From positions 1 to 24,246 of IMG/VR virus record IMGVR_UViG_3300035051_000049: a DNA stretch of 24,246 nt. One strand, given 5' to 3'. The notes below the pieces were generated by a model. The model saw only the letters and a program-made list of their open reading frames with translations, had not been told where the DNA came from and made no database searches. Source of the DNA: a virus. Taxonomy: Duplodnaviria; Caudoviricetes. This document shows positions 1,374 to 17,190 of the stretch, piece after piece. The position numbers were made by a program, and so were the translations under genes. Position 1 is the stretch's first letter; each line of letters starts with the position of its first letter.

Positions 1374-2167
1374 TGAGGGTCCACCTCAGGTGCCAGGTCT
1401 GCCGTCTCGGCGGCCTTGGGCGTGGCTTTACCCTTGGCGGCCTTCGCCTTGCCCTTGGCGGCTTTGGCTTTCGCGGCCTTAACCTTCGCTTTGTCCGCCA
1501 CGGCTTCCTCCTTTTCCTCCTTGGCCTCGACCAGGGCAGCGGCTTCCTTCTTTGCCTTTGCGGCTTTGGCTTTGGCCTCCCGCCGGGCTTTTGCAGCCAC
1601 AGCCTTCTCCTCTTTCTCCTTCTCTGCCGTCACGAGCTCCCGCGTATTCATCCAAGCCAACACGTCGTCCACTCCGTCCAGCCCGTCCTTGGAGTCCTGG
1701 ATGAGACCGCAGGTCTGCTTCAGGTCGAAGAGGGTCAGGTCGTGGCGGGTGTGACTGGTCTTCATAGTTGAGCGGAATATGAGGCGCGTGATGATTTCCA
1801 CGAGCGGGGGAAGGTCAGCTCCAATACCGTTCTCGACGGTAAACTCCAGGACTCCGGAGGCAGTATCCCACTCGATTTCCTCCGACTGGATGAGCATGCG
1901 GGCCATTGATTTACGGGCGCGATTGTGCAGGCGGCCTATGGCAGGAGCGTCACCGACGATGAAAGTAAGCGGTCCGATAGGGGCTTCGGTGAGGCCCAGA
2001 ACCATGATGTCTTCGGTGAGGCTGGAGAAGAAGTCCAGAGATGCCCGGTCTTTCTTCTCGAACGTGATCTCCAGACCCGTTTGGGTCTTGAGATGTTTGA
2101 CGGTTGATGTGAGACCCTTGACGGGTTCGCTCTTGCCTTTGATGACTAGTGATACGACGCAATTCAT
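1370..2167 (-). CDS. Hypothetical protein with Ala/Lys-rich, histone H1-like C-terminal tail
   Basis: AAAGGAG RBS; 265 aa; tail KAKVKAAKAKAAKGKAKAAKGKATPKAA. Confidence 0.85.
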   Translation of the reverse strand: MNCVVSLVIKGKSEPVKGLTSTVKHLKTQTGLEITFEKKDRASLDFFSSLTEDIMVLGLTEAPIGPLTFIVGDAPAIGRLHNRARKSMARMLIQSEEIEWDTASGVLEFTVENGIGADLPPLVEIITRLIFRSTMKTSHTRHDLTLFDLKQTCGLIQDSKDGLDGVDDVLAWMNTRELVTAEKEKEEKAVAAKARREAKAKAAKAKKEAAALVEAKEEKEEAVADKAKVKAAKAKAAKGKAKAAKGKATPKAAETADLAPEVDPQ

Positions 2168-2333
2168 TAGTTCTCCTTTGCGGGGGTTCCCGCTAATTTG
2201 TGGGGGGTGGGTGGTCCCATGGTCCCCTGAGGTTGGGGGAATTTCTCCCCCGTGGTCCCCCTAGGATGGGGGTTAGGGGGTTTCCAGCATAATACCCCTA
2301 ATCCCCCTTCCGTTATTCGACCCGCGACTAGGT

Positions 2334-2504
2334 CTAGAACGGGGGCTCGAGATCATCACCATAAAGATAAAGGATGAGCTCATAATGGTGTTCGACTTGG
2401 GACTCCAAGGTCGCAATCTGGTCTCGCTGTTCAAGCTGGATGTGGGCCAGGATTGCGAGCGCAAGTAGCAAACCAAGGATGCATGAGATGGAGAAGGCCT
2501 TCAT
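2334..2504 (-). CDS. Small membrane-anchored coiled-coil protein (56 aa)
   Basis: GGAGGAG RBS, ATGA overlap with the upstream stop, hydrophobic N-terminus MKAFSISCILGLLLALAILAHI. Confidence 0.7.
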   Translation of the reverse strand: MKAFSISCILGLLLALAILAHIQLEQRDQIATLESQVEHHYELILYLYGDDLEPPF

Positions 2505-2704
2505 GCTCCTCCCCTCAGGGTCCGATCGTACATAGGTCGGGTGTCCCACCTGACGGGTGCTACCCCGCGACCTGAGATGACGTTCCGGCGACGTGAGGGG
2601 TCGTACCCTTCTGGGGGGTTGCAGATTGCGCACCATTCCGGGTTCATTCCGTGTTTGCAGCGGGTGCGGGCTTCGGGTTGCGGGCTTCGGGTGTCGAGTG
2701 TCAT
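2501..2704 (-). CDS. Small protein with CxH-x6-CxxC putative Zn-binding motif
   Basis: GGAGGAAGG RBS, ATGA overlaps on both sides, CKHGMNPEWCAIC. Confidence 0.75.
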   Translation of the reverse strand: MTLDTRSPQPEARTRCKHGMNPEWCAICNPPEGYDPSRRRNVISGRGVAPVRWDTRPMYDRTLRGGA

Positions 2705-2982
2705 AGTCCTTCCTCCAGTATTTCTTCGAGGTTATTGGGATAGTGGTTAGCGCTCATGGGTTGCGGGGTTGGGTCTGGCGTCTCCCATCCGATTCGCCAC
2801 AGGTTGCATGGCATCGGGGGGTTGGGTGCATAGCCGGACAGGAATTTCTCCCCACCCACGAAATCACCTCCGCACCAAACGTTCACTTCGGGTGAGTCGA
2901 ACGGGCAAGGGAGCGGCGCGGCACACCCGTGACCCTCGATATACCTCTGGTTAATCAGTCTCCTCATCTTTGTTCGCGTCAT
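2701..2982 (-). CDS. Hypothetical protein (93 aa, starts MTRTKMRR)
   Basis: AAAGGAGG RBS before ATG 2982; stop overlaps the next start. Confidence 0.65.
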   Translation of the reverse strand: MTRTKMRRLINQRYIEGHGCAAPLPCPFDSPEVNVWCGGDFVGGEKFLSGYAPNPPMPCNLWRIGWETPDPTPQPMSANHYPNNLEEILEEGL

Positions 2983-3034
2983 AAGTCCTCCTTTTCCCGG
3001 CGGGTTAGGCCGGGGGTTTCGGGTTTCGGGCTTC

Positions 3035-3751
3035 TCACGCCGCCACCTGACTTGCGTATTCGTCGCACAGGACCCGCAGGTCCGCTGTCCGTCTCCCAAC
3101 CGAGAACAGGTTCAGGTCCCGGTTGATACGCGTTAGAGCTCCATGCCAAGGGTAAAGTCCGTCGTCCCCTGCCAGCTCCACTTCAGCCCGGTGCATTTCG
3201 CGGAATGCCCCGAATCGGTTTGCGGGTAGAATTCCCCTGTCCATAGCGTCGAACGTCAGGGCTTTCATCTGCGGCTCAGGTAGCGGGATGGCACGCAGTC
3301 CCTCATGCCACTCGTGTAACTCTTTGGCCTGGTCCAGCGCCTTCCCGAATGCCGCGTCCGCCACGTACAGCAGTTCCTCAAAGGTCAATCCGCTGGTGTG
3401 TTTGCGGAATTCCAGGAACTGCCCGGAGAATTGCATGTTGGAGCAGGCAATGACGTGAGTCCCGGCTGCAACTCCGACGGCGAAGGTCTTCATCAGGCTG
3501 TTCCGGAATCCAAGCTGAACCAGGGATCCCCCGTCTCCCAAGGGGATGTCCAGGGTCCATGTCCCAAACATATTACGGCCTGCATTCCGGGTGCTGTAAC
3601 TCTCGTTGACGACTCCCACTCCCTCTGCCTGGACGATCAGGTCTAGGCTGTCCAACACTTCTTTGTGGGAGATCGGGTGCCAAGTCTTCGTGTACTCTGG
3701 GGCCGGGATTGCCTCGATTTCCGACCGGGTGTGACGTTCTTTCGAGTTCAT
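3035..3751 (-). CDS. DUF932-family protein
   Basis: T.TW.PI.H motif, GFRNS...FAVG..AG..V..CSN.QF.G and H(T/S) motifs typical of this family. AAGGAGGAG RBS. Confidence 0.75.
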   Translation of the reverse strand: MNSKERHTRSEIEAIPAPEYTKTWHPISHKEVLDSLDLIVQAEGVGVVNESYSTRNAGRNMFGTWTLDIPLGDGGSLVQLGFRNSLMKTFAVGVAAGTHVIACSNMQFSGQFLEFRKHTSGLTFEELLYVADAAFGKALDQAKELHEWHEGLRAIPLPEPQMKALTFDAMDRGILPANRFGAFREMHRAEVELAGDDGLYPWHGALTRINRDLNLFSVGRRTADLRVLCDEYASQVAA

Positions 3752-3972
3752 GGCTCCTCCTTCTCGAATGCGATTTTTGACCGTCCATCTGGGCTATCCG
3801 TGTCCACAAAACGTGGGGAACGGACGATACGATATCCCGCTCCTCTGTCCGGAACCCAGCTTTCACATTGGTCAATCAAACGGTCCAGGGAGTACCGGGC
3901 ATCCAGCGGGCTTACCCCGTCGGTTCCCAAGATCTCCCGCCCATCACGGGTGAATTGTACGTAAGCTTTCAT
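3748..3972 (-). CDS. Hypothetical protein (74 aa, starts MKAYVQF)
   Basis: AAAGGAG RBS before ATG 3972; ATGA overlap with the DUF932 gene. Confidence 0.75.
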   Translation of the reverse strand: MKAYVQFTRDGREILGTDGVSPLDARYSLDRLIDQCESWVPDRGAGYRIVRSPRFVDTDSPDGRSKIAFEKEEP

Positions 3973-4017
3973 AAGGTTTCTCCTTTGGACCACCCAATGC
4001 GGGTGGCCCGTTTCGGG

Positions 4018-4086
4018 TTAACTGGTTGCTCCCCACAGGAAGAGCAGAAAGATTAGGAATTCGGGGTCCATGAGAAGCTCGATCAT
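4018..4086 (-). CDS. 22-aa hydrophobic peptide MIELLMDPEFLIFLLFLWGATS
   Basis: Read manually. GAAGGAG upstream and ATGA overlap with the stop of 4083-4277. Confidence 0.5.
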   Translation of the reverse strand: MIELLMDPEFLIFLLFLWGATS

Positions 4087-4277
4087 CCGTCACTCTCCTT
4101 CAGCTCATAACCCATGCTGGCCAGGAGTTCGTCTATCGCCTCTACACCGGCATCGGACAGCCCGTGGTCCATGAGGGTGGCGCGCGCCTGCAGAACCCTG
4201 TACTGATTTGCGGTTGGGGTTGGGGTCCGGGCTTCGGGCTGCTGGTTACCCCACGTGATTACCTTGTTCCCTTCCAT
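4083..4277 (-). CDS. Hypothetical protein (64 aa)
   Basis: AAGGAGG RBS; fits the operon. Confidence 0.7.
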   Translation of the reverse strand: MEGNKVITWGNQQPEARTPTPTANQYRVLQARATLMDHGLSDAGVEAIDELLASMGYELKESDG

Positions 4278-4300
4278 GTCGTTCCTCCTTCCATCGTTGG

Positions 4301-4432
4301 TTAACTTACTGTCACCATGGTGTTGGTTATCCGACTGTACTCCAGGATCAACCGTACAATCTCTTGCCTGGTCTCCTCTCTGTCTTCCTCTACCGTGACG
4401 GTTATCACATACGCTCCACGCTGTCTCTCCAT
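4301..4432 (-). CDS. Hypothetical protein (43 aa, starts MERQRGAY)
   Basis: AAGGGAGG RBS before ATG 4432. Confidence 0.6.
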   Translation of the reverse strand: MERQRGAYVITVTVEEDREETRQEIVRLILEYSRITNTMVTVS

Positions 4433-4483
4433 ACTGCCTCCCTTACTGGTTCGTTCGCTCCAATTTGGGGTGATGGACTGCCC

Positions 4484-4557
4484 GTCACCCCACACAACAG
4501 CGCGCGAACCATGGGTCGGGGTCTTGGGTCGCCCCATACAACAGCGCGCGACCCGTG
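4484..4557. repeat. Intergenic ~30-bp direct repeat (44-bp period) next to a hairpin
   Basis: CCCCAYACAACAGCGCGCGA at 4488-4507 and 4532-4551. Hairpin TGGGGTGATGG/CCGTCACCCCA at 4466-4492. Confidence 0.8.
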
Positions 4558-4570
4558 ACCCCGAATTCCA

Positions 4571-4882
4571 TCAGGACTTGGATTTGGTCTTGGTGGACTT
4601 GGCGGACTTGGCTGCCACCTGATTCGCATCGGTCCCAAGGTCGCTGTCATCAGCGGGGAGCAGACCCTTAGCCTTGGCTTCTTCCACCAATTTGAGCGCC
4701 TTAGCCAGGCGTGCGCTGGTCTTGTCCTTGGATTTGGACTTGGATTCCTCCGCATCCCGAATTGCCTTGTCCAGGCGCGCGCGACACTCATTTACGCGGT
4801 CCACAGCCCTGTCGTATGCGCGCTGTGCGATCTCTACCCTTGTCATACCCTTGCCACCATTGATCTCGTGTGTGTTCGCCAT
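4571..4882 (-). CDS. Helical, basic hypothetical protein (103 aa); first gene of the leftward operon
   Basis: AAAGGAGAGG RBS before ATG 4882; coiled-coil-like, with Lys/Ser-rich tail. Confidence 0.75.
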   Translation of the reverse strand: MANTHEINGGKGMTRVEIAQRAYDRAVDRVNECRARLDKAIRDAEESKSKSKDKTSARLAKALKLVEEAKAKGLLPADDSDLGTDANQVAAKSAKSTKTKSKS

Positions 4883-4980
4883 CGTTCCTCTCCTTTGATT
4901 TGGGTCGGGTCCCCGGCAGGATGCCCCATGCACCCCGCCCGGCCCAACCGCCCCAGGGCCAAGCCCCTACCTTATAACGT

Positions 4981-4996
4981 TGCAAGCCCCATACCA
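4981..4996 (-). promoter_or_regulatory. Putative sigma54 (RpoN) -24/-12 promoter for the leftward operon
   Basis: Minus strand reads TGGTATGGGGCTTGCA, matching TGGYAYRNNNNTTGCW with exact GG-N10-GC spacing, ~100 bp upstream of the first gene. Confidence 0.6.
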
Positions 4997-5150
4997 GAGC
5001 GAAAGAGGCAGGTATACCCCAACCAATGGTATGTTTCACGCCGGACACCACAACGGGTAGATCTACCACAGCGTGACAGTTACAAAGGACGGAGGTTTCG
5101 CGAACAGAACAGTGTTCACCCGTGTCCGACGCGGGCTTTGAGCCTGGCAT

Positions 5151-5179
5151 GTGTGACAAAGGATGTCAGTTTGTTACAC
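5151..5179. promoter_or_regulatory. Nested palindromes, candidate operator or upstream activator site
   Basis: GTGTGACAAA-N9-TTTGTTACAC (1 mismatch) containing TGACA-N5-TGTCA at 5154-5168. Confidence 0.45.
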
Positions 5180-5197
5180 GTAATGTTGTTTTCCCCA

Positions 5198-5602
5198 CGA
5201 AACGCTGTTTTGTTTCACGCACATGCTCCAGGACTGCCTTTCGGGTCTTGGTCCGGGTCTTGGTCCTGGAAACCCAAGACCCACGTCGGACACGACCCGT
5301 GGCCATCACAGACCTAGACCGGTGGCGGGATATGCAGGTGTCCCATATTCCTGAACGATGTTTGGGTGGCTAAACCTGAGACCCATTAGCGGTATTCTCG
5401 TTCAGCCCGTTGAACAGCGTTTCGAGCCGCGTCGGTCGGGTTCCTTCGGTTTAATTCGGGTTCAGCCCGCTACCCACTCGTTTAGCCTGCGGAACGGCGT
5501 TTCGCTAGTGGGTAGTGGGTTTCGGTTGCGGAACAGCGTTTCGGGCTTGGGCAGTGGGTTTCGGGTGTGGGCAGCGGATTTCGAGCGCCAAACAGCGTTT
5601 CG
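5198..5602. repeat. Dispersed 12-bp repeat AACRGCGTTTCG (4 direct, 1 inverted)
   Basis: Direct copies at 5413, 5493, 5532 and 5591; inverted copy at 5198-5209. A 39-bp tandem unit starts at 5489 and 5528. Confidence 0.8.
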
Positions 5603-6045
5603 GTCTCGATCGGTCCGTTTGGGAAGTGGGTACCAGGTTACGGGAGCGAAACAGTGTTATTGGGTGGCGAACGCGGTACTTGAGTGGCGAACTGGTGACT
5701 CAGGGGGACCCGGCCTGGGGGGAAGGGATTGTGAGCGACACCCCCCCCCTACATATTTGGATACGGTACCTCTCGCGTCAGACAAGTATTCAATATCCAG
5801 AGAATTACCCCGCCGCCGCACCACAGGTCTGGATGGTAAGTTGGGGGAGGCCCGAAGCGGGTAGCCCGTGTACCACAACGTGAAACCCGCCGCCCACATA
5901 GGAGATTTCCCCCCAAGCTCCCACCTCCGGCCACCTCGAAGCTCAAAGGTTGAGTGGGTTTAGGGTTCTGCCGCCGCTACCCCCCGGAATTGGTCCCTCC
6001 TGGGTCCCGCTCAGCCTCCTCCCGCAACCCGTGGGGGGTCGACCG

Positions 6046-6094
6046 AAACCCGTAACCCGAAACCCATAACCCGAAACCCGAAACCCGTAACCCG
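6046..6094 (+). repeat. Seven tandem heptamers WAACCCR immediately upstream of terS
   Basis: AAACCCG TAACCCG AAACCCA TAACCCG AAACCCG AAACCCG TAACCCG. Confidence 0.95.
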
Positions 6095-6105
6095 TAGAGG
6101 AATGC

Positions 6106-6531
6106 ATGGACAAGGAAACGAAAGAAACAATGATCGCAATGCTCGAGGATATCCCGAACATCACTGCCGTACGGAAGCTCCTGGGGATATCGGCCGACGC
6201 GTACCAGCAGGCCAGAAAGGATCCCGAGTTTGTGCGAAGGGTGAAGGTCGCGAGGGGTGCAGGATACGACATGATGGAACACGAAGCTCACCGGCGTGCG
6301 GTCGAGGGTTGGGTGGAACCAGTCTTCTACCGCGGGGAACTCGTGGCAGGGGAAGACGGAAAACCCGTGGGGGTTCGCCGTTACTCCGATACCCTCCTCA
6401 AATTCCTCCTCAAACACTGCAACCCGAAGAAGTTTAACCCCGGAGTGAACGTGAACGTGGGGGACGGAGAGAAGGTGAAGCTGGTATTCAACGTAGGGCC
6501 GCCCTTGCCCGTGAAGGAATCCGATGATTAG
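6106..6531 (+). CDS. terS: Terminase small subunit (putative)
   Basis: N-terminal HTH-like segment and EA.RRAVEG..EPVFY.G...RYSD.LL.FLLK...P.KF motif; first late gene. Confidence 0.75.
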   Translation: MDKETKETMIAMLEDIPNITAVRKLLGISADAYQQARKDPEFVRRVKVARGAGYDMMEHEAHRRAVEGWVEPVFYRGELVAGEDGKPVGVRRYSDTLLKFLLKHCNPKKFNPGVNVNVGDGEKVKLVFNVGPPLPVKESDD

Positions 6532-6601
6532 CGGGGAGACCATAGCGGTTTACCTTCTGATCTGGGGGGCGATTCTGCTCCTCGGGAGGGATGAACCGTA
6601 G
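6524..6601 (+). CDS. 25-aa single-TM peptide MISGETIAVYLLIWGAILLLGRDEP
   Basis: Read manually. AAGGA upstream; overlaps the terS stop. Confidence 0.45.
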   Translation: MISGETIAVYLLIWGAILLLGRDEP

Positions 6602-6625
6602 CCCGCGGCCCGCGAAGGAGGAGGT

Positions 6626-6757
6626 ATGAGAGACAAGTATCCAGCGATTATAGCCCTAGGCGTCATCGGGGGCCTATGCGTCGCATTCGACGTCAGTTAC
6701 GCGAAAGAGGTAGTCCTGATGATTATCGGAGTCGTCTCTGCCGTGATTCGCGACTAG
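6626..6757 (+). CDS. 43-aa protein with two hydrophobic segments, holin-like
   Basis: Read manually: MRDKYPAIIALGVIGGLCVAFDVSYAKEVVLMIIGVVSAVIRD, with strong AGGAGGAGG RBS. Confidence 0.7.
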   Translation: MRDKYPAIIALGVIGGLCVAFDVSYAKEVVLMIIGVVSAVIRD

Positions 6758-6810
6758 CCCGCCATCCGTAGCCCGTAGCCCGTAACCCTCATCCCGTAGA
6801 GGAGGAGACC

Positions 6811-7044
6811 ATGTACAAACTCACTATTACACCCGCCATACCCCCGAGCTTTCGCGACAAGCTGGAGGCTCTTCTTCGCACCGAAGGCTGTATTATCAAG
6901 GGGAGAGGAACGGAATTCGCGGGCTCCACCCGCTCAACCATCGAATTTGCCAACTACAGACTCTCTCGGGTTCGCGGGTCTCTCGCTGCCATATGCGAGG
7001 GGGCTCGCGAGTCCGACAACCCACTCAACAAGGAGGAAGTATGA
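6811..7044 (+). CDS. Hypothetical protein (77 aa)
   Basis: GAGGAGGAG RBS; ATGA overlap with the next gene. Confidence 0.75.
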   Translation: MYKLTITPAIPPSFRDKLEALLRTEGCIIKGRGTEFAGSTRSTIEFANYRLSRVRGSLAAICEGARESDNPLNKEEV

Positions 7045-7442
7045 AAAAGTTAATCTGCGCTCTGGTGACCCTGATGGGTTTCGCCCTGGCAGGCTGCGCC
7101 ACGTCCGGCACGCCCGACCCGATCGACACCAACCGGATTCTCCAGGTGACCCAAACAATCTATCTGGACGTCAGGACCGTAGTGACTGATCCAGAAGTCC
7201 TACCTCTCTTCACCGACGAGGAGCTCGAACGTCTGGCGGAATTAGAGCGAAAGTACCTGGAGGTGGCCGAACGGATGAAAGCCTTCCCCGAAGACGCCGA
7301 GGCTATCGAGCAGGTGTCTTTCCTGGCCGGAGAGATCCTGGAGATTCTGGACGAGATAACGTTCGTAGAGAAGGCAAGACCTTACGTCGCCGCGATCCGG
7401 ATTTCGATTGGGATTCTGAGGAACCACCTACCACGAACCTAA
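7041..7442 (+). CDS. Lipoprotein (133 aa)
   Basis: AAGGAGG RBS; signal peptide MKKLICALVTLMGFA-LAGC with lipobox; helical mature part. Confidence 0.85.
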   Translation: MKKLICALVTLMGFALAGCATSGTPDPIDTNRILQVTQTIYLDVRTVVTDPEVLPLFTDEELERLAELERKYLEVAERMKAFPEDAEAIEQVSFLAGEILEILDEITFVEKARPYVAAIRISIGILRNHLPRT

Positions 7443-7461
7443 CTCCGGGAGGTAGAAGACA

Positions 7462-7845
7462 ATGCTATATGCCCCCGCCCGTTACTGGCTCCTGGACCCC
7501 GAGGCCCACCGCGAGATTTGCAATGGCTGTGGCCCCAAGGGATTCGGCTTATTCGTGCCCGATACCATCTGGGGACTCCCGATTACCGAAGCCTGCGACA
7601 TTCACGACTTCATGTACGCCATGGGGGAAACCGAGGAGGACCGCCACGAGGCCGATCGGGTGTTCCGCAACAATCTCCTGCGACTCGTGGAGGGGGGCTG
7701 CCGCTGGCTCCGTCCACTCCGACGCCGGCGAGCTCTAACCTATGCCCGTGCGGTAATGGCTCTAGGGGGTCCCGCGTTCTGGTCGGGGAAGAACCCGCCA
7801 GAGACGGAGGCTCCCGTCGCCCGCCGCCCGAGGGGGGTCGCGTGA
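7462..7845 (+). CDS. Phospholipase A2-like / DUF1353-like protein
   Basis: CNGCG, ACDIHDFMY and R..AD..F..N motifs; GGAGG RBS. Confidence 0.7.
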   Translation: MLYAPARYWLLDPEAHREICNGCGPKGFGLFVPDTIWGLPITEACDIHDFMYAMGETEEDRHEADRVFRNNLLRLVEGGCRWLRPLRRRRALTYARAVMALGGPAFWSGKNPPETEAPVARRPRGVA

Positions 7846-7886
7846 AGATCATACCCGAAACCCGTTACCTGAAGGGGGTCGCGTGA
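7842..7886 (+). CDS. 14-aa minigene MKIIPETRYLKGVA bridging the PLA2-like gene and terL
   Basis: GTGA overlaps at both ends, produced by the repeat GGGGGTCGCGTGAAGATC at 7833-7850 and 7874-7891. Confidence 0.45.
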   Translation: MKIIPETRYLKGVA

Positions 7887-9328
7887 AGATCGTATACAAT
7901 GCAGAGCGAACTCCCACGCGGTTCCACCGGTCCAACGCATTCTACCGATGCATGCGGGGTCCGGTCCGCTCCGGAAAGAGTACCGCCATGTGCGCGGAGA
8001 TCATGATGCGAGCTTGCCGGCAAGACCCCGATCCTCTCGACGGAATCCGCCGGACGAAGTGGGGGGTAGTCCGCAACACCTACCGCGAACTCGAGGACAC
8101 CACGCTCGCGACCTGGCTCATGTGGTATCCCGAGAAAGTCTTCGGGAAGTTCAACTATGGGACGATGACGCATCATATACGCGTGAACGATATAGAGTGC
8201 GACGTCATGTTCCGGGCTCTCGACCGGGCGGAAGACGTGAAGAAGCTACTCTCGCTCGAACTCACGGGGGGTTGGGTGAATGAGGCTCGCGAGGTTCCTC
8301 GCGCGATCATCGACGTGCTGGGTGACAGGGTTGAGCAGTACCCCCCGCGACGCCCTCTCGACGACGGGGGAGAGTATGGGTGTACCTGGGGGGGCGTCTT
8401 CCTCGACACCAACTCGCCGGACGAGGACCACTGGTGGTTCGACGCCGAGGCCAATCCCCCCGAGGGCTGGGAATTCTTCACCCAGCCTGGAGCACTAATG
8501 GAGGTAGAGGGCAAGTTCGTTCGCAACCCGATGGCTGAGAACATTAGGAACCTGAACGGGGGTCACGAGTATTATCTCAAGCGAGTCGCGGGCAAGAAGA
8601 AGTCGTACGTGCGCGTCTACTACTGCAACCAATTCGGATATGTGGAAGAAGGGAAGCGGGTACACCCGGAGTATAATGACTCGATTCACGTAGCCCCTTC
8701 CCCTCTCGTCCCCGACTCGCGCCACCCTGTTGTCGTTGGGTTCGACTTCGGTCTAACTCCTGCCGCCGCCTTCTTCAGCCGTCGCCCGAGCGGTCAGTGG
8801 TGGCTCTTCAAGGAACTGGTGACGGAAAACATCGGGATCAAACAGTTTGCGGAACTGGTCCTTATTCCTTACCTGATTGAAAACTTGCTCGACTACTCAA
8901 TCACATACTATGGAGACACGCACGGGAATGTCGGAGCGCAGACGGATAAGAAGACTCCTGGCCAGATTTTTGAGGCTCTCGGGATACGGGTGGTTATGCC
9001 CGACTTGGGAACAGGAGATACGATTCGGCGCGAGGCTCTGGCTCAACCCCTATCCCGCATGATCGACGGCCAACCCGGCCTTCTCGTCGACCGTAACTGC
9101 AAGACTATTCGGAAGGGTCTTAGCTCAAAGTTCTACTACAAGCGGGTGCAGGTTGTGGGGGACGAGAAGTACCACGATAAACCCGAGAAGAACTTCTGGT
9201 CTCACGTATGCGAGGCCGCGGAACACGCAATGGTGGGCGCTGGCGAGGGTAAACTCCTTACCCGTAGACCCACTCCAAAGAAGAAAGTAAATCGAAAGTT
9301 TAGATCAATTGGGTGGATGGGGTCGTGA
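7883..9328 (+). CDS. terL: Terminase large subunit
   Basis: Walker A GPVRSGKST, Walker B GGWVNE, coupling motif DTN.P, nuclease motif VGFDFG. Confidence 0.95.
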   Translation: MKIVYNAERTPTRFHRSNAFYRCMRGPVRSGKSTAMCAEIMMRACRQDPDPLDGIRRTKWGVVRNTYRELEDTTLATWLMWYPEKVFGKFNYGTMTHHIRVNDIECDVMFRALDRAEDVKKLLSLELTGGWVNEAREVPRAIIDVLGDRVEQYPPRRPLDDGGEYGCTWGGVFLDTNSPDEDHWWFDAEANPPEGWEFFTQPGALMEVEGKFVRNPMAENIRNLNGGHEYYLKRVAGKKKSYVRVYYCNQFGYVEEGKRVHPEYNDSIHVAPSPLVPDSRHPVVVGFDFGLTPAAAFFSRRPSGQWWLFKELVTENIGIKQFAELVLIPYLIENLLDYSITYYGDTHGNVGAQTDKKTPGQIFEALGIRVVMPDLGTGDTIRREALAQPLSRMIDGQPGLLVDRNCKTIRKGLSSKFYYKRVQVVGDEKYHDKPEKNFWSHVCEAAEHAMVGAGEGKLLTRRPTPKKKVNRKFRSIGWMGS

Positions 9329-9356
9329 CCCCCTCTTCCAGATAAGGGAGACAATT

Positions 9357-9668
9357 ATGGAATACACCACCGCAGACCTTAGTGGGGCAGGGGAATATAC
9401 CGATTGGATAAGCCCGAAGAAGAACAAGGCTTATGGGACCCTGACAGGATTTCTGGACTTTATGATAAGCGGAACATGGGAGGGGACCCTGACGGTGCAG
9501 AAGCGCCATACCCACAACTCAACTCCGACGGACCCTGTTGATTTAGTCCAGTATACCACTAACAAGGCAAACTTGATTGAGGATCATTCAGCTTCGGTTG
9601 AATACCGTATCGGGTTTAAGATTGGAGACTATACAAGCGGCACGGCAACCGTGCGATTGGAGCAGTAA
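9357..9668 (+). CDS. Small beta-rich putative virion protein (103 aa)
   Basis: AAGGGAG RBS before ATG 9357; ISGTWEGTLTVQKR motif. Confidence 0.7.
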   Translation: MEYTTADLSGAGEYTDWISPKKNKAYGTLTGFLDFMISGTWEGTLTVQKRHTHNSTPTDPVDLVQYTTNKANLIEDHSASVEYRIGFKIGDYTSGTATVRLEQ

Positions 9669-9669
9669 T

Positions 9670-11424
9670 ATGAGTCATCCGCGATCGCATATATGGGACT
9701 TTGATGATAAAGCCGACAAAGACACCGATGCCGTAGTAGGAAACCTGCTGCAATCAATCACCGGTGGAGGGTATGAAGATTCGGGGATTGCGGCGGCTGA
9801 GGTGAAAGGCCACCTTGGCAGCACCAACGGTCATCCGGTCGCCACAGCATCAGTCGACGGCTTCATGTCTAAGGAATATGCCGCCAAGGTAGACATCCTG
9901 TCTGCCGCAAAAATCAATTATTCCGGGTACCCGGGAGAAGCCGGGTTCCCTAACGGCATTTGTCCAGAAGACAGCCTGCCGTCAGGCATGCTGCCGTTGT
10001 CCGGATATACAGACCCCACCAGCCCGAATTACGGAAACTATATCTATTCCGACGGGTCCATTATGGTCTACCGCCCTCAGACTTTTATAAAAGTGGGTGA
10101 TGGCACCAACGGGCTGGCAGTAAATGAAGTTGATGTTGTTCCCTGGGATGCGTTTGCAACCGAAGCCGAGGCAAATGATGCTGGGTATTTCATCCATGAT
10201 ATTTTTAAAAACGGTGCCGTGCTGAAAAAAGGTATATTCAGGGATAAGTATCATAATTCCAAAAATGCAAAAGGCGCCGGGTTTGTTGCCAGCTCAATTA
10301 AAAACGGACTGCCGATTTCCATGAGTGCCGATCATAACCCGGTTGCCGACCTGACGGCTTGCTCAGCAAACGCCTATTATGAGGCGATTAATGCCGCACA
10401 TGCCAGGGATGGTGTTGACGGGGCAGTGAATGCAAGCTCTATCTTTTTTGTTGAGCCTCGGCAGTTTGCCGCTTACATGGCCCTGACCACCACGGCCCAC
10501 GCACAAGCATCCACATCAGACACTTATTGTGCCTATTATGATGCGACAGGCGTGACAAACTATCCCAAAGGGTGCAACAACAACGCGCTCGGAGATACCG
10601 ATGACGGGTCTGTCTCCTATGTGAGTGACGGATATTCCAATTGCGGCAAGGCCGGATCAGGTACACCGTTTGCGAAAATAACCGATAATGGGCAGGAGTG
10701 TGGAATAGCAGATGTAAACGGCCTGATGTGGCGTATTAACATTGGTATGACCTGTATTACAACCACCGCCTCTATCACCTCAGCGACTCAGGCAAACCCG
10801 TGCCAGATCACAGCGGCTGCGCATGGCAAGTCAACCGGCGATTGGGTTATGATCACTGGGGTTGCAGGTATGACAGAACTCAACGACAAATTGTATCAGA
10901 TAACTGTCGTTGATGTAGACAATTTCACCCTGGATGGCATCGATGCCACCTTGTACACAGCATATACGTCAGGTGGAACCGCCACGTTCGGTGCGTTTTA
11001 CAAAAAAACGGATGCGGCTGAATATGAGGATTTTACGTCTGGGAACTCATTGGCCACAGACCACTGGGGAGCAACCGGTGTTGCAGCAATGATGGAGGAG
11101 GTTGAGCTGGAATTTGTTTCTGGTGGTGCCTTTGCGCAATGGTTCGGGAACAGTACAAACCAAGTGTTGAGTCCAGATATCACAGGAAATGATTTTGAGA
11201 TTCTCCAGCTCGGCTTGCCTGTTTCCGGCGGGGCCAGTTCCGGTGGTACCAATTTGTTCGGATCTGATTATTTTTACCAGTATATCAGAAATGAACTATG
11301 CGTGCTTGCCGGCGGCTATTGGGCCTATGGTTCCAACGCCGGGGTGTTCAGCGTCGCTTTGAACTACTACCGGACGCTTTCTCGCGACTACGTCGGGTTT
11401 GCCTGCGCCTGTTACCCTGTGTAG
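9670..11424 (+). CDS. DGR target protein, putative receptor-binding/tail fibre protein with C-terminal C-type-lectin-fold variable region
   Basis: GIADVNG.MW motif, E1-FCCH-like insert (ITSATQANPCQIT...GMTELN), and C-terminus VLAGGYW..GS.AGVF...LN..R..S...VGF typical of Mtd/FGE-type DGR targets. Confidence 0.85.
   Translation: MSHPRSHIWDFDDKADKDTDAVVGNLLQSITGGGYEDSGIAAAEVKGHLGSTNGHPVATASVDGFMSKEYAAKVDILSAAKINYSGYPGEAGFPNGICPEDSLPSGMLPLSGYTDPTSPNYGNYIYSDGSIMVYRPQTFIKVGDGTNGLAVNEVDVVPWDAFATEAEANDAGYFIHDIFKNGAVLKKGIFRDKYHNSKNAKGAGFVASSIKNGLPISMSADHNPVADLTACSANAYYEAINAAHARDGVDGAVNASSIFFVEPRQFAAYMALTTTAHAQASTSDTYCAYYDATGVTNYPKGCNNNALGDTDDGSVSYVSDGYSNCGKAGSGTPFAKITDNGQECGIADVNGLMWRINIGMTCITTTASITSATQANPCQITAAAHGKSTGDWVMITGVAGMTELNDKLYQITVVDVDNFTLDGIDATLYTAYTSGGTATFGAFYKKTDAAEYEDFTSGNSLATDHWGATGVAAMMEEVELEFVSGGAFAQWFGNSTNQVLSPDITGNDFEILQLGLPVSGGASSGGTNLFGSDYFYQYIRNELCVLAGGYWAYGSNAGVFSVALNYYRTLSRDYVGFACACYPV
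11301..11424 (+). repeat. DGR variable region (VR) and IMH-like 3' end
   Basis: Adenine-poor constant codons alternate with NNY codons (TAT, GCC, TAT, AAC, AGC, GCT, AAC TAC TAC, CTT, CGC GAC TAC), as expected from AAY mutagenesis. Confidence 0.75.
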
Positions 11425-11444
11425 CGAAGCGATAGCGAGCGATA

Positions 11445-11660
11445 ATGTCTGAGCCGGTCTTGAATAGAAAGTTTGTGGAAATGATGCAGCTGCTGAACAT
11501 CTATCTAAATCATTTCCCCAAACATGAAAAATACGCTTTGTGCAATCAGATAAGGAACACTGCATATGAGGTTTACAATCTCATCACTTACATATTAAAC
11601 CATAACAACAACATTGTCAACCAGAAAATCTCAGAAAAGAGAGGGTGTTATGATCATTAA
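11445..11660 (+). pseudogene. avd: Truncated DGR accessory variability determinant (four-helix bundle)
   Basis: LNIYLNHFPKHEKYALCNQIRNTAYEVY is an Avd-type N-terminus. Similarity ends near codon 48 (~11588). Total 71 aa versus roughly 110-130 for intact Avd. Confidence 0.8.
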
Positions 11661-12090
11661 ATACCAAAAGGTCACTGACCTGCACACAACCTACACATTG
11701 GCTGAACCAGACTATCATGATGGTGATGCCCGTTGTACTGAACTGGCAACTCTAAACGGCATTACATATGTCCATGTGCCTGACTCAATCACCCTGCCTA
11801 TCCAGCCGGAACAAATCACGGTTGAGGAAGTCACACTGACCCCGGAACTGCGGGAGGAAATAAAAGCCGTATCTCCGTGCGTCCGGTTGTCTTACAAGCG
11901 GCTGCAAGATCGGATCAGGTCCAGGTACAGCCTGGAGGATGAAGCTTACTACACCCGAATCAGTGTAGGTGTGCTGATGGGGACGTATGAAATGCAGCCA
12001 GGTGAGCTTGATGAGCTTGCAGCTTACCAGGCATGGGTCGAAAAGTGCCGAGAGATCGCCAGGCTGGAACGGGCTGTGTGGGGGCTGTAA
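11650..12090 (+). CDS. Hypothetical protein (146 aa), possible tail-fibre accessory/chaperone
   Basis: GAGAGGG RBS before ATG 11650. C-terminal IRSRYSLEDE...AYQAWVEKCR resembles tail-assembly-type helices (inference). Confidence 0.65.
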   Translation: MIIKYQKVTDLHTTYTLAEPDYHDGDARCTELATLNGITYVHVPDSITLPIQPEQITVEEVTLTPELREEIKAVSPCVRLSYKRLQDRIRSRYSLEDEAYYTRISVGVLMGTYEMQPGELDELAAYQAWVEKCREIARLERAVWGL

Positions 12091-12269
12091 TGTTACGAGC
12101 ATCAATCATTTGTTTCATAGTCGCAGCCCTGACGCTTTGGCTGATGGGTTGCACAGAACAAACCTATCAACCTTTCCCTGAAGGAGGCCAGGAAGTTCAG
12201 TCTCCCATCGGTTACGAGATCCACTGCCAGGAATTTCCAGATAGTATTTTCTGTAAGGAGGCTGAATGA
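12090..12269 (+). CDS. Small lipoprotein (59 aa) resembling a BTLCP N-terminal segment
   Basis: TAATG overlap; MLRASIICFIVAALTLW-LMGC lipobox; PIGYEIHCQEFPDSIFC motif. Confidence 0.7.
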   Translation: MLRASIICFIVAALTLWLMGCTEQTYQPFPEGGQEVQSPIGYEIHCQEFPDSIFCKEAE

Positions 12270-12664
12270 AAAACCTTGCTGAAAAAGTACATTCAAAGGT
12301 CAAGCGATTGTTCACTTACAAATCAGACAAAGAACAGTTTCAGGACTTCTGGGATCATTGGAAAAGCTGGGCAGATGAGGTAGAGGCCAACCAGCTGTTT
12401 TCTGACGATTGTGACGGATTCTGTCTCACCTGCGCTGAACTCTTGATTAGGCAAGGAGCAAAGCCTGAAGACGTGACCATCTGTGATGTGACAACGGAAA
12501 CAGGCGGGCGGCATCTGGTTTGTGTATATGGATCATGGGTTCTGGATAACAGATACTATTATGTGCCTTACTGGAAAGATTTGAATTATGAATGGCGCAG
12601 GTCGATGAGAATGGATGAACCTGGAACATGGAGGAAAACTTGGAGCGCATACAGGAAAAAGTAA
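12266..12664 (+). CDS. Transglutaminase-like cysteine peptidase (BTLCP / C93, LapG-like) catalytic domain
   Basis: Y.SD......DHW, DDCDGF (Cys), G.RHLVC (His), WVLDNR (Asp); AAGGAGG RBS. Confidence 0.8.
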   Translation: MKNLAEKVHSKVKRLFTYKSDKEQFQDFWDHWKSWADEVEANQLFSDDCDGFCLTCAELLIRQGAKPEDVTICDVTTETGGRHLVCVYGSWVLDNRYYYVPYWKDLNYEWRRSMRMDEPGTWRKTWSAYRKK

Positions 12665-15813: not shown

Positions 15814-17056
15814 CGCATTTCTTACCCACTCCATGATTGCGGAGCGGGCATTATTCGACCTGACAAACAATCTGATTATGGCGCAGAAAGTGTATAAGGG
15901 GTACAACTCCGAATTCGCTACTGCAGTCGGGGGGTACCAGAAGGGTAACTCCGTAACCGTTCACCTGCCGAATAAGTTCCGGACCAAATCCGGGGCGGCA
16001 ATCAATAAAGTCCAGACAGTGGAAAACTCCACCACGGTTACCGTGGACGAGCAGGAACACGTGGCTCTGGATTTCACCGAGCGGGAATTGACGCTGGATA
16101 TCGCGGATTTCAGCCGGAAATACATCAACCCGGCGACCATAGCCCTCGCGAACAAGATCGACTCCGACGGGCACGACGAGTACGTGAACGTGTATAATTT
16201 CGTGGGTACTCCGGGGACGACTCCCGCGACATTCCGCGTTCTCGCCGATATTGCGGAGCGGATGGATAACGAGGCGGTCCCGGATGACCGGCTCGCGATG
16301 TGGTCTCCCAAGGCCGCGTGGGGTCTGGCCGACGGGGAGCTGAAGTCCCTGTTCCACCAGAATATCGTGGGGACCATGGTCCGGCGCGGATTCCTGGGTC
16401 GATTCGCCAACACCGAACACTTCATGACTCAGAACGGGTCCTCCCATACAGTCGGGACGCACTCCACGGGATCGACGGGGGTGATGAACGGGGCAACCGC
16501 TGAGGGTGCTTCCTCGCTGGTGACCAACGGGTGGGCCGCCTCGACTGAAATCCTGAAGCGGGGTGACGTGATCACGATCGCTAATGTCGTGGGGGTTAAC
16601 CCCGTAAGCGGAAAGGCGTGGGAGGGAAGCCAGCTTCGCCAGTTCGTCGTCACTGCCGATGTAACCTCGGATGGCTCGGGCAACGCGACGATCCCGATCA
16701 GCCCGAAGATCTACTCCTCTGCCGCCGGGGAAGACGTACTCCCGTATCAGACGGTAGTCACGCTGCCCGTAAATGGTGCCGCGATTACGGTCGTCACGGG
16801 AGCTGAGGGGACGACTCACCTGCAGAATCTGGCGTTCCACCCCGACTGCTTTGCCCTGACCATGGTTCCGTTCAAGAAACCGAAGAGCGCAGGCAGCAGC
16901 ATCATGTGGGGTCAGGCATCGGATAAACAGCTTGGGTTGAGCATCACGGTTGCGACCGCGTTCGACATCGACGCCTATTCCGAGGCCACTCGCCTTGACG
17001 TGCTGTACGGCTGGGATACGGTCCGGCCCGAACTCGGGGTGAGGATTACAGGGTAA
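15806..17056 (+). CDS. Major capsid protein, P22 coat (gp5) family
   Basis: MAN.FLT, G.SVTV.LP.KF, PA..ALANKID, LK.GDVITIA.V..VNP, NLAFH.D.F.L, RLDVLYG...VRPE. Confidence 0.95.
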   Translation: MANAFLTHSMIAERALFDLTNNLIMAQKVYKGYNSEFATAVGGYQKGNSVTVHLPNKFRTKSGAAINKVQTVENSTTVTVDEQEHVALDFTERELTLDIADFSRKYINPATIALANKIDSDGHDEYVNVYNFVGTPGTTPATFRVLADIAERMDNEAVPDDRLAMWSPKAAWGLADGELKSLFHQNIVGTMVRRGFLGRFANTEHFMTQNGSSHTVGTHSTGSTGVMNGATAEGASSLVTNGWAASTEILKRGDVITIANVVGVNPVSGKAWEGSQLRQFVVTADVTSDGSGNATIPISPKIYSSAAGEDVLPYQTVVTLPVNGAAITVVTGAEGTTHLQNLAFHPDCFALTMVPFKKPKSAGSSIMWGQASDKQLGLSITVATAFDIDAYSEATRLDVLYGWDTVRPELGVRITG

Positions 17057-17058
17057 CC

Positions 17059-17142
17059 CGTAGTCCGTGACGCGTAACCCCGGCCAGATAACCCCGGCTC
17101 GTAGTCCGTGACGCGTAACCCGTAACGGGTAACCCCGGCTCG
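17059..17142 (+). repeat. 22-bp direct repeat (41-bp period) plus TAACCCCGGC x3 after the coat gene
   Basis: CGTAGTCCGTGACGCGTAACCC at 17059-17080 and 17100-17121. Confidence 0.9.
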
Positions 17143-17148
17143 ATAATC

Positions 17149-17190
17149 GCGGGAGGATAACCCCCGCCTCCCGCTTCTTTTTTTTCTTTC
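17149..17190 (+). terminator. Rho-independent terminator after the coat gene
   Basis: Stem GCGGGAGG/CCTCCCGC followed by TTCTTTTTTTTCTTTC. Confidence 0.85.

Follow-up and report, generated by a model that had tools for sequence, protein, structure and literature searches.

An orphan DGR target, most likely frozen in one VR variant, beside a truncated avd in a phage with P22-like portal and coat proteins

The DNA analyzed here (the window) is a virus record of 24,246 nt without further contigs (IMGVR_UViG_3300035051_000049) that encodes a terminase together with portal (E 7e-170) and coat proteins of the P22-like type, and it carries an orphan DGR target that is most likely frozen in one VR variant, a reading to which we assign a probability of roughly 0.8. 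As in leftover targets, the target gene is intact, its VR equals the TR of a relative except at adenines, and no core DGR lies beside it. Of the components that characterize a functional DGR, neither an RT nor a TR was found in the ~35.6 kb of this genome covered here, and the avd is not full-length (48 of 127 codons remain). The positions of the cassette, and of the accessory module in which it lies, are given in Table 1.

Table 1. Features of the window that bear on the cassette and its surroundings (strand "." where none applies).
Feature	Position	Strand	Basis and remarks
Accessory module, terminase-portal slot	9329..12631	+	Absent from near-identical strains; ~3.3 kb
103-aa gene, left end of module	9357..9668	+	ORF list; no Pfam or PHROG match
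DGR target gene	9670..11424	+	584 aa, intact ORF; predicted C-type-lectin fold with inserted FCCH barrel (aa 383-439)
VR (homology span to sister TR)	11297..11411	+	Sister TR pieces align to 11297-11411
Target 3' end and downstream element	11412..11444	+	GC-flanked GATA loop at 11431-11434; same as in sister
avd 5' fragment	11445..11588	+	48/127 codons
Break point; downstream part of avd and the TR lost, the RT presumably too	11588..11589	.	Sister contigs and X8 fork
61 nt of unmatched origin	11589..11649	+	33% GC; continues the avd reading frame; no recognizable RT tail
Conserved 146-aa gene, after RT in intact cassettes	11650..12090	+	82% identical to L006 (intact), 84% to L082; no Pfam or PHROG match
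59-aa small protein, lipoprotein-like by eye	12090..12269	+	Weak phrog_902, E 0.005
Transglutaminase-like cysteine peptidase (C93), right end of module	12266..12664	+	Pfam PF06035, E 5.7e-10

The target gene had been predicted to be intact, and its ORF is indeed unbroken. An AlphaFold model of residues 111-584 (pLDDT 87, from a 31-sequence alignment) has as its top structural match TaqVP of Thermus aquaticus (PDB 5VF4; Foldseek E 1.8e-11; VIA Z 29.4), with an rmsd of 3.0 over 293 residues at 18% identity, and also resembles Mtd (Z 12.6) and TvpA (Z 11.9). Unlike TaqVP, the window target is phage-borne and orphaned and contains an inserted FCCH barrel, for which a Pfam scan of the window ORFs gives E1_FCCH at E 5e-11. 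Based on this model, the protein is predicted to combine a CLec fold with a VR at its C-terminus, as a DGR target should. It likely has a receptor-binding role, probably as an accessory virion ligand-binding protein rather than as the sole receptor-binding protein. The only relative in genome collections comes from a Desulfuromonadales MAG (62%), and searches of cultured phages returned weak matches only, with none covering 80% of the query.

Downstream of the target, the sequence had been read as an Avd N-terminus, and two lines of evidence agree with this. Within the 71-aa fusion ORF (11445-11660), which consists of 48 avd codons followed by 23 unrelated codons, Pfam bAvd matches residues 5-56 (E 2.2e-6, 28.5 bits, a score under the 40-bit cut-off as expected for a fragment), and the first 48 residues are identical to those of a 127-aa Avd (P0001) that matches the PHROG Avd family at 9e-22. 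The switch that had been placed near 11588 falls exactly at 11588/11589; however, 38% of the avd remains rather than half of it. As also predicted, the next gene follows immediately, overlapping the end of the fusion ORF.

Twenty-four sequencing runs are listed with this locus, all labelled oil field metagenome and none of them an RNA run; six are flagged as possible sources, and most samples may come from one campaign. Eight of these runs (X1, X7-X11, X13, and X16) were compared through their contigs only, and the junction was callable in X1, X7-X10, and X16. Contigs of X9, X10, and X16 follow the window to 11588, diverge from it exactly there, and reach a TR 256 nt later, and it is only in such sister contigs that the cognate TR is present. 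In X8, contigs fork at 11588, one branch following the window (depth 4.4) and the other running on into avd (depth 3.3), with a TR piece also present, such that intact and broken forms occur together in one sample; the fork has 30 letters on its left, one under the bridging threshold. The sister contigs stop within the TR or a short way past it, or are covered for only 30 letters more, and we infer that the sisters carry an RT because a full RT is found in 65 of 69 informative avd loci (from a survey of 80 loci, 12 of which were set aside as too short, with L067 counted back since its downstream gene is visible).

We note that the suggestion that the last ~23 codons of the fusion ORF are the tail of the RT failed. 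On a PSSM built from 54 RT C-termini, the segment scores 3.1, a value matched by 26% of 5000 shuffles, whereas 12 real RT tails score 23-33 on the same matrix (in-sample). An HMM gives 1.9 bits for the segment, no RT sharing words with the 23 codons was found, and the RT GH motif, which lies 61-70 nt upstream of the ATG of the next gene in the measurable intact overlapping loci, is absent in the window. The reading frame does fit that of the RT relative to the next gene, but as a one-in-three coincidence this was set aside. Among viral contigs, the 61 nt occur only in L001, a search of metagenome contigs returned none, and no donor was found. In L067 and L093, in contrast, the avd is clearly joined to the 3' part of an RT.

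This leaves the proposed deletion of the avd 3' part, TR, and RT standing in part. The loss itself is seen at 11588, but a simple deletion from a sampled sister lacks support, because X9, X10, X13, and X16, the four runs in which intact avd-TR contigs or TR-like pieces occur but the deletion form does not, have no contig over ~11605-11695, gaps that in themselves prove little. As the 61 nt to the right of the break match neither RT tails nor sampled sisters, we favor an illegitimate join of two module variants over a simple deletion.

The VR was expected to carry adenine-linked variable codons, and this was borne out by the nine members of the target's 90% cluster, in which 15 of the 15 TR-adenine codons vary, compared to two of the 21 other VR codons (Fisher p 2e-8; the list of TR-adenine codons derives from comparisons with sister TRs, with one position inferred). 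The TR piece in X8 differs from the window VR at 14 positions, eight of which are itemized, seven of these with A in the TR; that in X16 differs at 10 positions, seven of which are itemized, all with A in the TR. The sole listed difference without A in the TR is at 11382 (T in the window, G in the TR). Since only part of the differences are itemized (8/14 and 7/10), the rest of the TR was deduced from the difference counts. On this basis, the TR back-inferred in the original prediction is ~3 bases off, with G at 11382, A at 11343 (listed), and probably T at 11317 (deduced from the counts). Separately, an apparent "zero differences" for the TR pieces in X9 and X10 was rejected, as we judged it to be a counting effect of overlapping pieces.

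The region following the VR is preserved. Contigs of X9, X10, and X16 have no listed differences over 11412-11444, and the downstream element is identical in sisters whose VRs vary. The GATA loop is present, and the stem folds weakly (z +1.5); across the 80 loci, a GC-GRNA-GC motif is found at most 70 nt upstream of avd in 41. The cis-elements required in BPP-1 (PMC3240598) are the IMH and a hairpin whose loop is of the GRNA type. As the 3' cis-elements are unchanged from the sister, the window target should be targetable in principle, and service in trans is possible.

The single VR of the window-type records suggests that such rewriting is most likely not taking place, which is one of the two outcomes raised in the original prediction, the other being dependence on a DGR in trans. 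Among three window-type target entries (P0011, found on five contigs, P0012, and P0019), none of the 15 TR-adenine codons differ, compared to 4-14 of 15 for other target pairs, and an X1 contig (depth 232, from a run flagged as a possible source) crosses the VR unbroken. Counting against freezing, the window-type contigs of X7 are interrupted at position 11389, one of the TR-adenine sites, and have one difference that is not itemized; moreover, as contigs drop rare variants, low-level VR diversity would be invisible in these data. The intact contig of X10 has 18 listed differences in the VR vs 4 listed upstream. The intact contig of X9, on the other hand, carries the window VR allele (one difference over 11240-11588), and thus the break fixed an allele that is still present in intact phages; given this, the sameness of the VR could also reflect selection or recency. 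An adenine ratio of 876 to 19 across loci was set aside, as it is biased by the choice of pairs.

It is unlikely, in our assessment, that the window target is instead an orphan serviced in trans, in which case it would still be rewritten whenever its phage happened to co-reside in one cell with a prophage or sister phage of matching TR. The cognate TR is present in the same habitat, X8 holds both forms in one sample, the VR, 3' end, and downstream element of the target equal those of the sister, and avd, TR, and brt function in trans from a plasmid (PMC5758913, in the portion available). However, the contigs contain no second VR allele with the window-type N-terminus or junction.

Further evidence bearing on service in trans comes from the same target in other phages. 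The target is known with three different N-termini, and its intact, broken, and HNH-replaced forms are 98-99% identical within one habitat. An unrelated phage of 47.8% GC (G001, locus L082) carries it at 98.4%; this genome (59,990 nt, complete by CheckV, with terminal repeats) has no RT, no TR, and a single VR-like copy, and at L082 4311-5004 a gene resembling HNH/endonuclease VII, which starts at the 3' end of the VR, takes the place of avd-TR-RT. Five target entries with the HNH-type C-terminus (P0013-P0016 and P0018) have five different VRs at the TR-adenine codons, and between P0014 and P0018 all 499 body residues agree, whereas 11 of 15 TR-adenine codons do not. The entry P0015, with numerous changes scattered over its length, is possibly a low-quality one, a complete genome is linked only to P0013 among these five, and the HNH gene itself is seen in L082 and X11, with a same-length insert in X16 and the other members assigned from their C-terminus. 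The presence of an HNH-type copy in a complete genome without an RT hints at diversification in trans. However, P0017 has the N-terminus of P0014 but an intact-type end, and so the diversity among HNH-type copies could equally stem from intact phages having been invaded by the HNH gene more than once; service in trans, repeated invasion, or plain recombination would each explain it. One idea, for which these HNH-type copies are the strongest pointer but which we hold to be doubtful, is that unrelated phages drawing on one pool of hosts share this target gene, and that those without avd-TR-RT (lost through the break in the window, through HNH replacement in L082) exploit the TR RNA and RT supplied by an intact phage infecting the same cell, making hypermutation a public good.

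Several other observations were made at these loci. The fourth X16 record, which had been considered as a new allele of the L082 phage, was rejected as such, because its listed changes match P0014, which has a different N-terminus. A 20-bp hairpin covers the likely ribosome-binding site of the HNH-like gene of L082 (z -3.9), and a 525-aa ORF at L082 6254-7831 carries a motif, identified by eye, from which we take it to resemble IscB/RRXRR-HNH proteins. In L086 (1396-1446) and L088 (4951-5001), the target is followed by the downstream gene after a spacer of ~50 nt that resembles, by eye, the ends of the HNH insert of L082.

Very unlikely is the possibility that a cognate TR and RT reside in an unseen part of the genome, making the window target a non-adjacent one. 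The window is a 24-kb fragment, and non-adjacent targets within 50 kb are described as common in phage DGRs in the accessible text of PMC5758913. Within the window, the best second copy of the VR has at least 40 non-adenine mismatches in 124 nt, and tblastn gave no RT match, while the control L006 was matched. An overlapping record (G005), 99.7% identical over window positions 1883-9289, extends ~11 kb further to the left, and no TR or RT was found in it either. Assuming colinearity, window and G005 together cover ~35.6 kb, whereas two complete relatives, neither of which gave an RT match, measure 40 and 44 kb, leaving ~5-8 kb unseen; across the part searched, the prediction that the genome lacks a cognate TR and RT is upheld. 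Pattern scans of viral contigs for the TR returned only the VR of L001. A scan of metagenome contigs gave no match, but its pattern required T at 11382, a base absent from the TR, and was thus unable to detect the TR. In addition, the broken avd adjoins the target and the VR is invariant, both of which argue against a non-adjacent target.

A misassembly at 11588/11589, which had been named as an outcome that would overturn the prediction, is highly improbable, despite the apparently chimeric assembly of L038 at its TR, which shows that such errors happen at these loci, and the flagging of the six top runs as possible sources, since the same junction recurs in L001 (a separate assembly with an identical VR), is bridged by contigs in X1 and X7, and appears in the clean fork of X8, since the fusion ORF is encoded on seven contigs, and since no repeat within the window links the two sides. 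L001 differs from the window at 115 positions in two tracts, none of which fall within 9200-12269 and thus none in the cassette.

Returning to the phage itself, the module has 49% GC, compared to 57-59% for the backbone. In two near-identical strains, L097 (identity 94-96%) and L102 (89-97%), ~490 nt stand in place of 9329-12631, from which it follows that the target is not essential to this phage lineage. The gene downstream of the cassette is mosaic across the compared samples. As side observations, the terminase-portal slot holds differing gene sets in the window, L097, L100, L101, and L102 (~0.5, 2.5, 3.3, and 4.7 kb), marking it as a swap site for accessory genes; the two difference tracts of L001 (8377-9200 and 12270-12424) are nearly all synonymous in the terminase, pointing to recombination between strains; and intergenic arrays in which 7-nt units recur at a spacing of 14 nt (6018-6115, 6755-6803, and 17053-17166), which adjoin the slot in L097 too, are possibly regulatory. 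A Desulfotignum MAG is the named source of a near-identical Avd (P0005), and taken together with the target relative in the Desulfuromonadales MAG, this makes a host of the sulfate-reducer type likely.

Taking these observations together, the orphan target probably arose in three steps. A phage with a P22-like backbone would first have acquired the 3.3-kb module in its terminase-portal slot from a phage of lower GC content, probably in the same host, the direction of transfer being suggested by the GC difference. The break at 11588/11589 would then have removed the rest of the avd, the TR, and presumably the RT, or ~1.4 kb by comparison with L006, in which the avd start and the downstream gene are 1598 nt apart vs 205 nt in the window. 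Without TR RNA and RT, a DGR cannot carry out retrohoming in cis. Based on this mechanism and on the allele counts, the VR allele present at the break would subsequently have been inherited unchanged, without mutagenic retrohoming in cis. One may speculate that freezing is favored once a good binding variant has been found.

Decay of this kind recurs among related loci: the four of the 69 informative avd loci that lack a full RT include the window cassette and one that is probably chimeric, and L093 provides a further case. In L093 (5463-6410, from a Desulfuromonadales MAG), an in-frame Avd-RT fusion of 315 aa keeps YVDD, with the TR and the 5' half of the RT deleted. Independent losses are seen in L067 (4001-4330), where the avd 5' part is joined to an RT tail, and in L013 (5090-5150), where the RT has an internal deletion. 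L038 (3800-4500), where the VR is rich in N and the TR passes into AT-rich sequence of a different kind, is probably an active DGR in a chimeric assembly. The avd is cut at 76-83 codons in L019, L040, and L043 (by a small deletion, frameshift, or stop), with TR and RT still downstream.

Comparison with characterized systems helps to place the cassette. The intact relatives share the order target-avd-TR-RT with the BPP-1 DGR (mtd-VR-hairpin, avd, TR, brt), and the window shares with it a predicted CLec target, adenine-specific VR variation, and a GRNA-type loop after the VR. Unlike BPP-1, however, the window has neither TR nor RT, its avd breaks off at codon 48, the stem that follows the VR is a weak one, and its dispensable target lies in the terminase-portal slot. 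Leftover DGR targets without a core have been described in Treponema denticola isolates (PMC4891356) and incomplete cassettes in crAss-like phages (66 of 91 genomes, PMC7290462), with leftover targets or incomplete phage cassettes described also in PMC12386605, in each case going by the available part of the source. As in these, the window VR differs from a relative's TR at adenines, and no TR or RT was found in the ~35.6 kb of the genome covered; in contrast to these, the breakpoint is placed to the exact nucleotide, a single sample contains both the intact and the broken form, and the target is common to unrelated phage backbones. Remote targets, in the accessible portion of PMC5758913, likewise lie apart from TR and RT with intact cis-elements, but they are served by a DGR of the same genome, whereas none was found in the ~35.6 kb of this phage, and remote targets are, according to that portion, not to be expected for phage DGRs. 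No report of service across phages or of HNH replacement of avd-TR-RT was found in the literature as far as its accessible text extends, with subscription journals thinly covered, and the available parts of PMC12629997 and PMC11792537 contain nothing on cross-phage service.

As a frozen DGR, the cassette is thus ordinary, since such decay is published and recurs among related loci. Its value is that of a natural experiment, in which intact, broken, and HNH-replaced forms of nearly the same target exist in one habitat. Because intact and broken forms occur in one sample, raw reads could test whether the DGR of one phage rewrites the target of another. RT-anchored surveys are already described as missing remote targets (PMC8144416, in the part available). 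If rewriting across phages were true, phages that lack an RT would still have a way to diversify their binding proteins, and hypermutating phages would be undercounted by such surveys.
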